A stretch of DNA of 64,000 bases from NCBI RefSeq assembly GCF_053078305.1, contig NZ_CP166879.1. One strand, given 5' to 3'. The stretch's first letter is position 1. Every line of letters begins with the position of its first letter. Both the position numbers and the translations under genes were made by a program. Under the pieces are notes generated by a model. That model saw only the letters and a program-made list of their open reading frames with translations, did not search any database and was not told the origin of the DNA. This document shows, one piece after another, positions 3,817 to 61,496 of this stretch.

Positions 3817-5544
3817 TTAGCAGATTGTTTTTTCTTCAATGAACTTGTTAACCAGCGTCATTAACTCGTCCGTTGTCGGTTGAGCAAGAGCCTGCTCTGC
3901 TAACACCTTCGCATCTTCGAAGTTCGTGTTACGGATAATCTTCTTAATGCGCGGGATAGAAATGGCGCTCATAGAGAATTCGTCCAGACCCATCCCCAGC
4001 AACAGAAGTGTAGCACGTTCATCGCCAGCAAGCTCACCACACATGCCAGTCCATTTGCCTTCAGCATGAGAAGCATCAATAACTTGCTTGATCAAGTTCA
4101 GCACGGACGGTGACATTGGCTGGTAAAGGTGTGAAATCATATCATTACCACGGTCAACTGCCAGAGTGTACTGCGTTAAATCATTGGTGCCGATACTAAA
4201 GAAATCAACTTCTTTGGCTAAATGACGTGCAATTGTTGCGGCAGCCGGTGTTTCCACCATTACGCCGATTTCAATTGACTCGTCAAACGCTTTACCTTCG
4301 TCGCGCAGTTCCTGTTTGTAAATTTCGATCTCTTTGCGCAGTGCACGCACTTCTTCAACAGAGATGATCATCGGGAACATAATGCGCAATTTACCGAAAG
4401 CCGAGGCACGCAGGATAGCGCGGAGCTGATCGCGCAGGATCTCTTTACGATCCATCGCGATACGGATAGCGCGCCAGCCGAGGAACGGGTTCTCTTCTTT
4501 CGGGAAGTTCATGTATGGCAGCTCTTTGTCGCCGCCGATGTCCATGGTACGAACGATAACCGCCTGCGAGCCACACGCTTCAGCCACTGCTTTGTAAGCA
4601 GCAAACTGTTCTTCTTCAGTGGGCAGCGCGTCGCGGTCCATGAACAGGAACTCAGTACGATACAGACCAACGCCTTCAGCGCCGTTACGCTCTGCACCTT
4701 CAACGTCACGAACCGTACCAATGTTAGCGCATACTTCTACCTGGTGACCGTCCAGCGTAATAGCTGGCAGATCTTTCAGTTTAGCAAGCTCTGCTTTTTC
4801 AGAAGCCACTTGCTCCTGAACAGCGCGCATTTTATCAATAACTTCGTTGGTTGGATTGACGTAAACCTGATTATTTACGGCATCCAGAATCAGATAGTCG
4901 TCATTTTTCACCTGAGAGGTGACGCTACCGGTACCCACGATAGCAGGCAGTTCCAGAGAACGCGCCATGATAGAGGTGTGGGAAGTACGGCCACCCGCGT
5001 CGGTGATGAAACCCAGCACCTTCTTCAGGTTCAGCTGTGCGGTTTCGGACGGCGTCAGGTCAGCGGCAACCAGAATGACTTCATCCTGAATGGCGCTCAG
5101 GTCGATAATCTTCAGGCCCAGGATGTTGCGCAGCAGGCGCTTACCGATATCACGTACGTCAGCCGCACGTTCTTTCAGGTATTCATCATCCAGCTCTTCC
5201 AGGGCAGAAGCCTGACCTTCGATAACTTCATGAGCAGCTGCGTCAGCAGTCATGTGTTTATCTTTAATCAGGGCTATGATTTCCTGCTCCAGCTCCTCAT
5301 CTTCGAGCAGCATAATATGCCCTTCAAAGATGGCTTCTTTTTCTTCACCGAACGTTTCACCAGCTTTCGTTTTGATCGTTTCCAGCTGGGCTGATGCCTT
5401 GGCACGACCGCTCAGAAAACGTTCAACTTCCTGATCAACCTGGTCGGCAGAAATTTTTTTCCGGTCAATGACAATTTCGTCTTCTTTCAGAAGCAGAGCT
5501 TTACCGAAAGCGATACCCGGGGATGCTAAAATGCCTGAAATCAT
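3817..5544 (-). CDS. ptsI: PTS enzyme I (phosphoenolpyruvate-protein phosphotransferase)
   Basis: 575 aa [22 protein letters not shown]...; between ptsH and crr. Confidence 0.95.
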
Positions 5545-17239: not shown

Positions 17240-17315
<76 letters not shown>

Positions 17316-17354
17316 AATTTTGCACCCAGCAAATTTGGTACGTAAACGCATCGT

Positions 17355-17430
<76 letters not shown>

Positions 17431-17469
17431 AATTTTGCACCCAGCAAATTTGGTACGTAAACGCATCGT

Positions 17470-17545
<76 letters not shown>

Positions 17546-53702: not shown

Positions 53703-55031
53703 TTAACGGCCTTTTGCCAGATATTGCTCCATCTCTTCTTCCGGCACCATTCCACCTCCCGTCGCCCACACCAGATGAGTGGTATTACGCAGTTGTTCTG
53801 CGCTGAAACCGTGCATCTGTTGGTAACTTACTGATGCACACACGCGCTGAGGTCCGGCCATACCCGCCAGTGCCGAAGGTTCAAGACGAATACCTTCTTC
53901 CTGCGCCAGCCAGCCAAGCATGTCATACATGGTTTGATCGCTAAGGGTATAGAAGCCATCCAGCAGACGCTCCATTGCCCGCCCGACAAAGCCTGATGCG
54001 CGACCAACTGCAAGGCCATCCGCTGCGGTAAGGTTGTCGATACCAATATCCTGAACAGAAATCTGATCGTGTAATCCTGTATGGACGCCTAACAACATAC
54101 AAGGGGAGTGCGTTGGTTCGGCAAAAAAGCAGTGAACATGATCGCCAAACGCCAGTTTAAGCCCGAATGCGACGCCACCAGGACCACCGCCAACACCACA
54201 CGGCAGATAGACAAACAGAGGGTTATCAGCATCGACGATACGGCCTTGCTGGGCAAATTGCGCTTTAAGACGCTGGCCAGCGACGGAATACCCAAGGAAC
54301 AACGTGCGGGAATTTTCGTCATCAATAAAGAAACAGTTCGGGTCAGACTGCGCTGCTTTACGTCCTTCCTCGACGGCAACACCATAATCTTGCTCATATT
54401 CCACGACCGTAACGCCATGGCTGCGCAGTTTCGCTTTTTTCCATGCCCGGGCATCAGCAGACATATGCACTGTCACCTTAAAGCCAATGCGGGCGCTCAT
54501 AATGCCGATTGATAACCCCAGATTTCCGGTTGAGCCCACAGCAATGCTGTATTGGCTAAAGAACTGTTTAAACTCCGGAGAAAGCAGTTTGCTGTAGTCA
54601 TCATCAAGCGTCAGCAACCCCGCTTCCAGAGCCAGTTTTTCTGCGTGTGCCAGGACTTCATAAATCCCGCCGCGTGCTTTTATGGAGCCGGAAATGGGCA
54701 AATGGCTATCTTTTTTCAGTAACAGTTGCCCGCTGATCGGTTGTTGATATTCCTTTTCCAGCCGTTTTTGCATAGCCGGAATGGCAACCAGTTCTGATTC
54801 AATAATCCCCCCAGTGGCAGCAGTTTCAGGAAATGCTTTTGCCAGATAGGGTGCAAAACGGGATAAGCGCGCATGGGCGTCCTGAACATCCTGTTCGGTC
54901 AGGCCAACATAAGGTAAACCTTCAGCCAATGAGGTCGTGCCAGGATTAAACCAGGTGGTTTCTTTAAGAGCAACCAGATCCTTTACCAACGGATACTGGG
55001 CGATGAGCGAGTTCATTTTAGCGTTTTCCAT
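53703..55031 (-). CDS. dsdA: D-serine ammonia-lyase (D-serine dehydratase)
   Basis: 442 aa PLP enzyme [31 protein letters not shown]..., PLP lysine in SGSIKARGG. Confidence 0.93.
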
Positions 55032-55048: not shown

Positions 55049-55279
55049 TTAGATGATAAATGACAGCAGGAATGTGCCCGCCAGAGCGACGACTGAAGCG
55101 ATAAATGTCGCTGTCGTATAGTATTTAAATGTTTCATTGAGCGTAGCGCCGCAATATTGCTTCACCAGCCAGAAAAGCGAGTCCGTAACGATCGTGCAGC
55201 CAATCGCGCCTGAACCGATAGCAATCGCAATAATTTCCGGGCTGATGTCGGGATACAGCGGCAGCACAATGATCCATAT
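55049..55279 (-). pseudogene. dsdX: 3'-terminal remnant of D-serine permease gene dsdX (GntP family)
   Basis: Only the last ~72 codons of a GntP-type permease are present immediately upstream of dsdA; reading frame is closed by a stop at 55280-55282. Confidence 0.7.
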
Positions 55280-56500: not shown

Positions 56501-57934
56501 TTAACCCAGTTGCCAGAGTGCTCCATGTTGCACCACAGCCACTCCGTGGGAGGCATAAAGCGACAGTTCCCGTTCTTCTGGCTGCGGATAGATTCGACTA
56601 CTCATCACCGCTTCCCCGTCGTTAATAAATACTTCCACGGATGATGTATCGATAAATATCCTTAGGGCGAGCGTGTCACGCTGCGGGAGGGGAATACTAC
56701 GGTAGCCGTCTAAATTCTCGTGTGGGTAATACCGCCACAAAACAAGTCGCTCAGATTGGTTATCAATATACAGCCGCATTCCAATGCCGAGCTGTAATCC
56801 GTAATGTTCGGCATCACTGTTCTTCAGCGCCCACTGCAACTGAATCTCAACTGCTTGCGCGTTTTCCTGCAAAACATATTTATTGCTGATTGTGCGGGGA
56901 GAGATAGATTGATGCTGCTGGCGTAACGACTCAGCTTCGTGTACCGGGCGTTGTAGGAGTTTGCCATTGCTCTCTGATAGCTCGCGCGCCAGCGTCATGC
57001 AGCCTGCCCAGCCTTCACGTTTTGAGGGCATTGGCGATTCCCACATATCCATCCAGCCGATAACAATACGCCGACCATCCTTCGCTACAAAGCTTTGTGG
57101 TGCATAAAAGTCATGCCCGTTATCAAGTTCAGTAAAATGCCCGGATTGTGCAAAAAGTCGTCCTGGCGACCACATTCCGGGTATTACGCCACTTTGAAAG
57201 CGATTTCGGTAACTGTATCCCTCGGCATTCATTCCCTGCGGGGAAAACATCAGATAATGCTGATCGCCAAGGCTGAAAAAGTCCGGACATTCCCACATAT
57301 AGCTTTCACCCGCATCAGCGTGGGCCAGTACGCGATCGAAAGTCCATTCACGTAATGAACTGCCGCGATAAAGCAGGATCTGCCCCGTGTTGCCTGGGTC
57401 TTTCGCCCCGACTACCATCCACCATGTGTCGGCTTCACGCCACACTTTAGGATCGCGGAAGTGCATGATTCCTTCTGGTGGAGTGAGGATCACACCCTGT
57501 TTCTCGAAATGAATACCATCCCGACTGGTAGCCAGACATTGTACTTCGCGAATTGCATCGTCATTACCTGCACCATCGAGCCAGACGTGTCCGGTGTAGA
57601 TAAGTGAGAGGACACCATTGTCATCGACAGCACTACCTGAAAAACACCCGTCTTTGTCATTATCGTCTCCTGGCGCTAGCGCAATAGGCTCATGCTGCCA
57701 GTGGATCATATCGTCGCTGGTGGCATGTCCCCAGTGCATTGGCCCCCAGTGTTCGCTCATTGGGTGATGTTGATAAAACGCGTGATAACGATCGTTAAAC
57801 CAGATCAGGCCGTTTGGATCGTTCATCCACCCGGCAGGAGGCGCGAGGTGAAAATGGGGATAGAAAGTGTTACCCCGGTGCTCATGAAGTTTTGCTAGTG
57901 CGTTTTGCGCCGCATGCAATCGAGATTGCGTCAT
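56501..57934 (-). CDS. cscA: sucrose-6-phosphate hydrolase / invertase (GH32)
   Basis: 477 aa from MTQSRLH...; GH32 motifs WMNDPNG, FRDPKV, WECPD. Confidence 0.88.
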   Translation of the reverse strand: MTQSRLHAAQNALAKLHEHRGNTFYPHFHLAPPAGWMNDPNGLIWFNDRYHAFYQHHPMSEHWGPMHWGHATSDDMIHWQHEPIALAPGDDNDKDGCFSGSAVDDNGVLSLIYTGHVWLDGAGNDDAIREVQCLATSRDGIHFEKQGVILTPPEGIMHFRDPKVWREADTWWMVVGAKDPGNTGQILLYRGSSLREWTFDRVLAHADAGESYMWECPDFFSLGDQHYLMFSPQGMNAEGYSYRNRFQSGVIPGMWSPGRLFAQSGHFTELDNGHDFYAPQSFVAKDGRRIVIGWMDMWESPMPSKREGWAGCMTLARELSESNGKLLQRPVHEAESLRQQHQSISPRTISNKYVLQENAQAVEIQLQWALKNSDAEHYGLQLGIGMRLYIDNQSERLVLWRYYPHENLDGYRSIPLPQRDTLALRIFIDTSSVEVFINDGEAVMSSRIYPQPEERELSLYASHGVAVVQHGALWQLG

Positions 57935-59135: not shown

Positions 59136-60383
59136 ATGGCACTGAATATCCCATTCAGAAATGCGTACTATCGTTTTGCATCCAGTTACTCATTTCTCTT
59201 TTTTATTTCCTGGTCGCTGTGGTGGTCGTTATACGCTATTTGGCTGAAAGGACATCTAGGGTTGACAGGGACGGAATTAGGTACACTTTATTCGGTCAAC
59301 CAGTTTACCAGCATTCTATTTATGATGTTCTACGGCATCGTTCAGGATAAACTCGGTCTGAAGAAACCGCTCATCTGGTGTATGAGTTTTATCCTGATCT
59401 TGACCGGACCGTTTATGATTTACGTTTATGAACCGTTACTGCAAAGCAATTTTTCTGTAGGTTTAATTCTGGGGGCGCTCTTTTTTGGCCTGGGGTATCT
59501 GGCGGGATGCGGTTTGCTTGACAGCTTCACCGAAAAAATGGCGCGAAATTTTCATTTCGAATATGGAACAGCGCGCGCCTGGGGATCTTTTGGCTATGCT
59601 ATTGGCGCGTTCTTTGCCGGCATATTTTTTAGTATCAGTCCCCATATTAACTTCTGGTTGGTCTCGCTATTTGGCGCTGTATTTATGATGATCAACATGT
59701 GTTTTAAAGATAAGGATCACCAGTGCGTAGCGGCGGATGCGGGAGGGGTAAAAAAAGAGGATTTTATCGCAGTTTTCAAGGATCGAAACTTCTGGGTTTT
59801 CGTCATATTTATTGTTGGGACGTGGTCTTTCTATAACATTTTTGATCAACAACTTTTTCCTGTCTTTTATGCAGGTTTATTCGAATCACACGATGTAGGA
59901 ACGCGCCTGTATGGTTATCTCAACTCATTCCAGGTGGTACTCGAAGCGCTGTGCATGGCGATTATTCCGTTCTTTGTGAATCGGGTAGGGCCAAAAAATG
60001 CATTACTTATCGGTGTTGTGATTATGGCGTTGCGTATCCTTTCCTGCGCGCTGTTCGTTAACCCCTGGATTATTTCATTAGTGAAGCTGTTACATGCCAT
60101 TGAGGTTCCACTTTATGTCATATCCGTCTTCAAATACAGCGTGGCAAACTTTGATAAGCGCCTGTCGTCGACGATCTTTCTGATTGGTTTTCAAATTGCC
60201 AGTTCGCTTGGGATTGTGCTGCTTTCAACGCCGACTGGGATACTCTTTGACCACGCAGGCTACCAGACAGTTTTCTTCGCAATTTCGGGTATTGTCTGCC
60301 TGATGTTGCTATTTGGCATTTTCTTCCTGAGTAAAAAACGCGAGCAAATAGTTATGGAAACGCCTGTACCTTCAGCAATATAG
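59136..60383 (+). CDS. cscB: sucrose:H+ symporter (oligosaccharide:H+ symporter family, LacY-like)
   Basis: 415 aa 12-TM MFS ORF. Confidence 0.88.
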   Translation: MALNIPFRNAYYRFASSYSFLFFISWSLWWSLYAIWLKGHLGLTGTELGTLYSVNQFTSILFMMFYGIVQDKLGLKKPLIWCMSFILILTGPFMIYVYEPLLQSNFSVGLILGALFFGLGYLAGCGLLDSFTEKMARNFHFEYGTARAWGSFGYAIGAFFAGIFFSISPHINFWLVSLFGAVFMMINMCFKDKDHQCVAADAGGVKKEDFIAVFKDRNFWVFVIFIVGTWSFYNIFDQQLFPVFYAGLFESHDVGTRLYGYLNSFQVVLEALCMAIIPFFVNRVGPKNALLIGVVIMALRILSCALFVNPWIISLVKLLHAIEVPLYVISVFKYSVANFDKRLSSTIFLIGFQIASSLGIVLLSTPTGILFDHAGYQTVFFAISGIVCLMLLFGIFFLSKKREQIVMETPVPSAI

Positions 60384-60824
60384 ACGTAAACTTTTTCCGG
60401 TTGTTGTCGATATCTCCATATCCTTCAACCGGAAAATAATAATACTAAAATGCTTAGCCCTGCTAATAATCGCCTAATCCAAACACCTCATTCATGTTCT
60501 GGTACAGTCGCTCAAATGTACTCCGGATACACGGTTCGCTGATTTCCAGGACATTGTCGTCATTCAGCGACCTGTCGCGTGTATCACGGGCCTGCGAATT
60601 CATCAAGGAATGCATTGCGGAGTGAAGTATCGAGTCACGCCATATTTCGCTATCAGGATTCTGTGTGATGGTTACATCGCCCGGCCCAAGGCTGTTTAGT
60701 CATCAGCGCTTTCTGACAGTGCTGAGATTTCAACCTGTTGCAGTAAAAATGAGTAGATATAGGGCAAGTGTGCTGCCAAACCCATCGTTTACGGGATGAA
60801 GGTAGATTTGGTTTGAAGGGTATC

Positions 60825-60839
60825 TGGTGTCCCCTGCAG
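60825..60839 (-). other. prophage att core: copy of the 3' end of tRNA-Arg (argW-type)
   Basis: TGGTGTCCCCTGCAG is the reverse complement of ...CTGCAGGGGACACCA (3' acceptor end of tRNA-Arg-CCU as recalled); similarity stops after 15 nt, so this is a partial copy and not a tRNA gene. Confidence 0.5.
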
Positions 60840-60912
60840 ACATCTACTTGAAGCGGCAGGGGATTGATTGGAATGGTGTTTTTTAGATGTGAAAAATATT
60901 TTACCCGCTATT

Positions 60913-61113
60913 TTACCCATTGGCGCGGCTTAAGAGCTTATTTTTGAATTCACAATGGTCACGATATAACCATCTTGCTCGCCCGTGGATAACTTTGGCT
61001 TTAGGTAGGTCTCCGGACTTAATCCGGTCATAGATGAAGGTCTTACCGAAGCCAGTATCAGCCATGATGAATTTCAAATCAACCAGTGAATCAGGTTGTA
61101 GTTCGTGTTGCAT
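60913..61113 (-). CDS. torI: AlpA/TorI-type excisionase (recombination directionality factor)
   Basis: 66 aa MQHELQPDSLVDLKFIMADTGFGKTFIYDRIKSGDLPKAKVIHGRARW...; winged-helix Xis family; matches my recollection of TorI of the argW prophage. Confidence 0.6.
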   Translation of the reverse strand: MQHELQPDSLVDLKFIMADTGFGKTFIYDRIKSGDLPKAKVIHGRARWLYRDHCEFKNKLLSRANG

Positions 61114-61217
61114 GAGTGCTATCTCCGAATAGGGAATCGAACCTGCAAATCAGGCAATAAAAAAACCGCATTGATGCGGCGATGGTAGGTCTGGATATCT
61201 TGATAAATGAAAATGCC

Positions 61218-61496
61218 TCATCGAGTGTGAGGCGGTGTGATTCCATGGTTACCTCTGCTTTTTGAACGCATGTCACGTAACTTCTTAATGTGTTCTGCCG
61301 TTTCGATCTCTTCTGCTATCCGATCTGCATCAGCTTTATTCACAGGTTCAAAGTCATGATTAAAGCGGAACATGCTGGCGATACATGTTCTGCCTTTTCG
61401 GATGTAGTGAACTTTGTTGTGGTTAGAACGCAGGATTTTGCAGGGAGTGCCGTGGTGGTCGACGTACCAGGTGTTAGGCAAAATGATTCTGAACAT
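61218..61496 (-). CDS. hypothetical prophage protein
   Basis: 92 aa ORF co-oriented with the prophage early-left operon. Confidence 0.45.
   Translation of the reverse strand: MFRIILPNTWYVDHHGTPCKILRSNHNKVHYIRKGRTCIASMFRFNHDFEPVNKADADRIAEEIETAEHIKKLRDMRSKSRGNHGITPPHTR

Follow-up and report, generated by a model that had tools for sequence, protein, structure and literature searches.

The 441-bp segment that separates the cscB stop codon from the prophage attachment core (positions 60384-60824 of the window, that is, of the whole 64,000-nucleotide stretch analyzed here) is very probably the ordinary cscB-argW spacer that is inherited with the csc genes, a three-part fossil that serves neither as a working gene nor as an RNA. 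The first-pass annotation had placed it at a junction between the csc block and the att core and had found no open reading frame of 60 aa or more in it, and both statements hold. The segment begins directly after the last base of cscB at 60383 and ends directly before the core at 60825-60839 (Table 1), and the ORFs lying wholly within it, on both strands, are all 50 aa or shorter, with the longest start-to-stop ORF at 50 aa and the longest stop-to-stop frame at 78 codons. The lack of a longer ORF is in itself unremarkable, because 59% of 2,000 shuffled versions of the segment also had no ORF of at least 60 aa, the median longest ORF in the shuffles being 56 aa.

Table 1. Features of the cscB-argW spacer and its immediate surroundings, in window positions.
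Feature	Position	Strand	Description
cscB (sucrose permease)	59136..60383	+	415-aa ORF; upstream neighbor; stop codon 60381-60383
cscB 3' flank, part of the csc block	60384..60466	+	homology to Citrobacter amalonaticus csc loci
Hairpin	60393..60436	+	11-bp stem UUUUCCGGUUG/CAACCGGAAAA; 22-nt loop with an inner 4-bp stem
Residual ORF	60463..60615	-	50 aa, inside the relic; RefSeq/PGAP "DUF4942 domain-containing protein" or "hypothetical protein" in other genomes
DUF4942 pseudogene relic, piece 1	60472..60669	-	corresponds to aa 86-151 of the 281-aa intact paralogues
DUF4942 relic, piece 2	60675..60758	-	corresponds to aa 38-65; other frame, with an in-frame stop
argW-proximal arm	60759..60824		no coding homology; apparent resemblance to the integrase-proximal arm of a CP4-like island at argW
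att core	60825..60839	-	15 bp, TGGTGTCCCCTGCAG, reverse complement of the 3'-terminal 15 nt of the tRNA-Arg gene argW; junction on the attR side of an HK620/Sf6/KplE1-type prophage
torI-like excisionase gene	60913..61113	-	66-aa ORF; first prophage gene; the equivalent is annotated torI in K-12, O26, and strain 4750

The distribution of the segment was determined by megablast against 5,426 complete Escherichia coli genomes. It was matched in 2,644 of these (with a query coverage of at least 80% in 2,623), always on the chromosome, nearly always in a single copy, and mostly at 95-99% identity, and cscB was detected in 2,648 of the same 5,426 genomes. From the agreement of the two counts it follows that the spacer and the csc genes are inherited together. 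The cscB product is labeled an oligosaccharide MFS transporter in all matched genomes. In the prophage-free strains 3CM, EcPF40, and ECNB21-M121 the alignment stays collinear over the whole distance between the cscB stop and argW, and the 3' end of argW meets the spacer exactly at window position 60825. Alignment against csc-carrying strains had been proposed as a check on the first-pass annotation; because of this collinearity with element-free strains, the whole segment is ordinary csc flanking sequence, which was the homology half of what that annotation had named as evidence against its own reading. The allele in the window is 98.9% identical to its best full-length (441-bp) match among the complete genomes, from which it differs by a few SNPs, and positions 60440-60824 are 99.5% identical to the nearest complete genomes.

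The argW-csc/argW-dsdCXA variable region and the displacement of dsdC by the csc block are both described in passages of PMC11251922, PMC3032704, and PMC7486766, which cite Jahreis et al. (2002) and Moritz and Welch (2006). The common layout of this region is argW, an optional prophage or island, cscB-cscK-cscA-cscR, a truncated dsdX, and dsdA. Within this layout, the segment is the usual stretch between cscB and argW and shows nothing different in kind; in the window, the att core is occupied by an HK620/KplE1-type prophage. At the far side of the csc block, a dsdX remnant (window 55267..55052, minus strand; aa 374-445, 98.6% identical to K-12) lies upstream of an intact dsdA (53706-55031) and directly adjoins it. 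The csc block has replaced dsdC and most of dsdX, and this remnant is the other boundary of the replacement. The architecture of the locus has thus been described already, and the gene relic inside the spacer is annotated in public records (RefSeq).

Several other records of the locus are of interest in their own right. In ETEC L7_E1373 (locus L004, 4080-5771), ISEc46, an element of the IS200/IS605 family with TnpA and TnpB, stands in place of the spacer past its first 79 bp and is followed by an N-terminal integrase fragment adjoining argW, an arrangement pointing to a deletion at the argW hotspot that was linked with the IS. The spacer of E. coli SCPM-O-B-8794, a GTDB species representative (locus L018, 5300-5572), is much more diverged and is shortened by internal deletions; it is 70-77% identical in pieces, and the att core and prophage-end sequence still follow it. 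Four GenBank "phage" genomes (ON470594.1, ON470589.1, ON470608.1, and ON470622.1) all contain cscB and the spacer, and two of the four also contain a tRNA-Arg gene. These records include host flank of the argW locus, through over-extension of the prophage boundary or through aberrant excision. They may be the four coliphage csc hits that are mentioned in a passage of PMC11251922.

The right-hand end of the segment is defined by the attachment site. The 15-bp core is identical to the core of K-12 pawZ, the attR of CPS-53 (KplE1), and to the attP core of HK620/Sf6. The likeness continues into the prophage, as window positions 60825-60900 are 97.4% identical to K-12 pawZ and the adjacent torI-side end of CPS-53/KplE1 and also match the HK620/Sf6 attP region. 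The bacterial side of the core is different, with 95 bp followed by dsdC in K-12 and the unrelated 441-bp csc spacer in the window. The sole role of the spacer in the window is that of the bacterial-side flank of the att core of an HK620/Sf6/KplE1-type prophage. The argW core next to the spacer is intact and goes on acquiring elements, which across strains are HK620/KplE1-type prophages (the window and strain 4750), CP4-like islands (O26), and others (O157 and strain A16). Inside the prophage of the window, just upstream of the torI-like gene, positions 61157-61233 (minus strand) carry a terminator-like hairpin, GCCGCATCAATGCGGT, followed by T7, and the same interval shows sub-threshold likeness to the Rfam families isrK (13.7 bits, E 5.6) and ncS025 (16.6 bits, E 5.6).

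The first of the three parts of the spacer is a piece of the csc block itself. CscB homologues with 90-91% amino acid identity exist in Citrobacter amalonaticus (loci L019 and L023; cscB at 4001-5248), where cscB is accompanied not by argW but by a methyl-accepting chemotaxis protein (MCP) gene, fbp, and mpl. Nucleotide identity to these loci, at 80-82%, extends through cscB and past its stop codon and ends at about window position 60451-60466. The csc block therefore takes in the first ~70-85 bp of the spacer and has its permease-side boundary at this distance from the cscB stop. The junction between this flank and the DUF4942 relic described below is placed within ~20 bp, the last homologous relic codon being at 60472. 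Within E. coli, the flank is single copy and restricted to csc+ strains.

The flank contains a hairpin that begins 9 nt past the cscB stop codon and is unique within the window. Its folding energy is -17.9 kcal/mol, against -7.0 ± 2.3 kcal/mol for shuffled sequences (z -4.7), and the post-cscB hairpin is kept in C. amalonaticus with identical stems. In an alignment of seven sequences (four E. coli alleles, one from a divergent Escherichia, and two from C. amalonaticus), none of the 28 paired columns varied, compared with 13 of 18 unpaired columns and 13 of 20 flanking columns; the sequences are related, so the Fisher p of ~1e-7 to 1e-9 for this contrast is indicative rather than exact. Because of this conservation, at least ~44 bp of the segment are not freely drifting. 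Across the same seven sequences no compensatory change was found in the stems, and without covariation the conserved trait could be the DNA sequence rather than an RNA structure. A dispersed repeat or REP-like hairpin was ruled out, the element being single copy and confined to csc+ genomes. A CscR operator was likewise ruled out, as the operators between cscA and cscK are of the TTAACGTTAA type and are unrelated to the hairpin arms. A likeness of the hairpin region to cscA (window 57017-57085; 69 nt, 64%, E 0.03) was treated as chance.

The hairpin had been taken for the cscB terminator. It does stand at the start of the segment and belongs to the 3' end of cscB, but the terminator assignment itself is doubtful, since the U-tract of an intrinsic terminator is missing. 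A Rho-independent terminator of the cscKB operon would be in keeping with a stable stem-loop so close behind the cscB stop and with its conservation alongside cscB across genera, stems invariant. However, the 3' side of the stem continues with AAUAAUAAUAC and has no U-tract in E. coli or in C. amalonaticus; the T-run on the 5' side of the core stem pairs with an A-run on its 3' side, both forming outer base pairs of the stem. The loop, moreover, is 22 nt and not short, the consensus terminator scan called nothing at 60393-60436, and the lack of covariation does not favor RNA structure over DNA sequence as the trait under conservation. Because it has no U-tract, the hairpin is not a canonical intrinsic terminator, and Rho-independent termination of cscKB at this site is, on balance, unlikely. 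With no canonical terminator behind cscB, cscKB transcription could plausibly read through passively. Most likely, the hairpin would mark or protect the cscKB mRNA at its 3' end; it may act as a non-canonical determinant of the 3' end or the stability of this mRNA, or as an inverted repeat to which a protein binds. We put forward, tentatively and as a real possibility, that the hairpin has a function and travels with the csc genes from one genus to another (E. coli and Citrobacter), the rest of the spacer being fossil.

The second and largest part of the spacer is a decayed gene fragment, as the first-pass annotation had thought possible, and the gene is one encoding a DUF4942 protein. The 78-codon open frame matches Pfam PF13708 with an E value of 5.6e-10 and 39.6 bits, above the gathering cut-off of 25, over profile positions 5-62 of 190, which is the first third of the domain. 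With the intact paralogues (280-281 aa) as tblastn queries, residues 86-151 aligned to 60669..60472 at 59-61% identity (E 2e-20), and a second HSP placed residues 38-65 at 60758..60675 with 46% identity and an internal stop (E 0.003). About 55-60 nt, corresponding to aa 66-85 (~20 codons), are missing between the two pieces. At the nucleotide level, blastn to intact DUF4942 genes gave 73-77% identity over 60480-60681 and 80% over 60709-60758. The intact paralogue carries its DUF4942 domain at aa 87-275; in the spacer there is no intact frame of ~280 aa spanning this domain, but two frames, a stop, and no ORF longer than 50 aa.

Intact DUF4942 paralogues stand in terminal position in CP4-like islands, beside tRNA-Ile or tRNA-Ser genes. 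The gene set of these islands comprises Ag43, DUF932, an antirestriction protein (KlcA), RadC/JAB, YeeT (DUF987), the YeeU/CbeA antitoxin, the CbtA toxin, DUF5983, DUF957, and DUF4942. The relic has 59-61% amino acid and 73-80% nucleotide identity with the intact genes and is, like them, associated with a tRNA-gene integration site. Unlike them, it retains only codons ~38-65 and 86-151 of 281, with a change of frame and a stop; it has no neighboring island genes and shows no coding constraint. In two intact examples that were inspected the gene converges on the adjacent tRNA gene, whereas the relic reads away from argW. A HMMER pass over 1.8 billion representative proteins found no closer intact relative, the best full-length match being 57% identical, and a word-indexed protein search returned only fragments of 44-85 aa from the same locus. 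As named examples of DUF4942 genes, K-12 yeeW and yoeF were considered and rejected. YeeW of CP4-44 consists of the DUF5983 N-terminal domain (DUF5983_N) only, YoeF matches the C-terminal end of PduV/EutP GTPases (locus L026, 3941-4135 and 4576-4932), and K-12 CP4-44 has no DUF4942 gene.

The third part is the arm next to the core, and its comparison is with islands that occupy argW itself. In O26:H11 FWSEC0001 (locus L013, 2696-28087) and FDAARGOS_1257 (locus L014, 3130-6144) the argW core is occupied by an integrated CP4-like island, in tandem with a torI prophage in the case of FWSEC0001; the integrase of the island lies toward argW and its YeeU end toward the spacer. This particular island is a later arrival, because the intact spacer lies past a further copy of the core. 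When the 60 nt beside the core were compared, ungapped and in fixed register, with the integrase-side arm of the O26 island, 32 of 60 positions were identical for the O26 spacer allele and 29 of 60 for the window allele, against a background mean of 15 of 60; among 242,014 background 60-mers the empirical p was 4e-6 and 7e-5, respectively. A free local alignment of the same two arms was not significant, as 34 of 500 shuffles scored as well or better. Because of this last result, and because a single island arm was compared, the evidence that 60759-60824 would be akin to the integrase-side arm of an island is graded as moderate. The likeness could also have come from islands capturing host flank.

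The orientation of the DUF4942 relic, reading away from argW, is that of the distal end of the argW islands of O26 and FDAARGOS_1257. Island gene content is therefore found beside a tRNA att core in the orientation of an island, as expected of a CP4-like remnant. The spacer contains no homology to integrase, and no second att copy bounds the relic, the exact 15-bp core being present in the window at 60825 alone. The most economical history that we can infer has three steps. A CP4-like island would first have integrated at argW. The arrival of the csc block would then have cut off the distal end of this island from DUF4942 codon ~151 onward, and the same event would have removed the attR of the island, the 95-bp flank, dsdC, and most of dsdX. 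A large internal deletion, from ~60 bp of the integrase-side arm to DUF4942 codon ~38, would finally have left only the two extremities of the island, a fossil that the csc genes would since have brought along in roughly half of E. coli while it drifted neutrally. On this history, the spacer would record the presence of a CP4-like island at argW before or at the time when the csc block arrived, which would add a step to the known history of the region. As a separate observation, the island of O26:H11 FWSEC0001 and FDAARGOS_1257 ends with a yeeU-family antitoxin gene ~85 bp from the att core and has no annotated cbtA toxin gene; the yeeU-family gene at this island edge may be an orphan antitoxin.

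Variation among alleles bears on whether any of this material is still in use. When alleles of the group that includes the window were compared pairwise with those of the EcPF40 group, differences amounted to 5.4-6.8% in the spacer and, in the adjacent cscB, to 1.9-2.3% overall and 4.3-5.3% at third codon positions. In a set of 12 alleles, variable sites make up 18.8% of the spacer, 6.5% of cscB, and 14.2% of the third positions in cscB, and the spacer has indels of 1, 2, and 6 bp. Sorted by codon position in the same 12 alleles, variable sites are distributed 12:12:9 in the relic and 16:6:59 in cscB, so that the excess at third positions that purifying selection would leave on the DUF4942 frame is not seen. 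Since the divergence is at or above the third-codon rate of cscB and has no codon-position bias, the spacer outside the hairpin evolves as neutral, unconstrained, decaying DNA.

The same divergence argues against a functional small RNA, whether free-standing or derived from the cscB 3' UTR, which the first-pass annotation had listed as possible. A 441-bp non-coding gap beside horizontally acquired DNA is a place where such an RNA might be sought, a conserved and stable hairpin stands directly after cscB, and there is one weak promoter-like site on the minus strand (60466-60439). Shuffled sequences, however, contain 2.1 such sites on average, more than the segment itself, and folding of the whole segment is no better than that of shuffles (z -1.4 on the plus strand and -1.3 on the minus strand). 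An Rfam 15 scan of 59900-61400, with E values up to 10 admitted, gave no match inside 60384-60824; a known RNA family was thereby ruled out, the only weak matches being those to isrK and ncS025 in the prophage noted above. There is no U-tailed terminator, and the sequence other than the hairpin carries indels and has diverged at a synonymous-like rate or faster. The literature retrieved on cscB together with argW, or on small RNA together with O157, reports no sRNA or transcript at the spacer. From these sequence features a small RNA would be quite improbable, and the proposal finds no support in the Rfam, folding, and divergence results.

Even less probable is a functional small protein made from the 50-aa ORF. 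In its favor, PGAP calls a CDS at this place in many genomes, and the Pfam score exceeds the gathering threshold. Yet less than one third of the domain is covered, the ORF varies in length from 44 to 85 aa between strains, its variable sites show no third-position excess, and no Shine-Dalgarno motif is visible in the sequence upstream of the ATG. A short minus-strand DUF4942 CDS is called in the spacer in many RefSeq genomes, and in many others no CDS is annotated there. What RefSeq calls a short "DUF4942 domain-containing protein" in many csc+ genomes is a fragment of a pseudogene, and the entry should be taken as one.

A decayed dsdC 3' end, left behind when csc replaced dsdC and dsdX and named by the first-pass annotation as an example of what the segment might hold, can be practically dismissed: it has geography on its side, as in K-12 the dsdC 3' end is separated from this att core by 95 bp and dsdC and most of dsdX were indeed displaced by the csc block, but blastn (word size 7) of window 60300-60900 against the K-12 attR-dsdC-dsdX-dsdA region matched only the att core and the prophage end, tblastn of DsdC against the segment gave a single 7-aa match (E 35), and ~287 bp of the segment are accounted for by DUF4942, the gene from which the fragment does derive.

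The practical weight of the result is small. The gap no longer counts as a candidate for a concealed gene, a remnant of dsdC, or the locus of an sRNA. One unrelated observation was made elsewhere in the window, at 17240-17545, where three tRNA-Ala(GGC) genes stand in tandem, about 115 bp apart. K-12 has two tRNA-Ala(GGC) genes, alaW and alaX, and the array in the window may be a one-unit tandem expansion relative to K-12.
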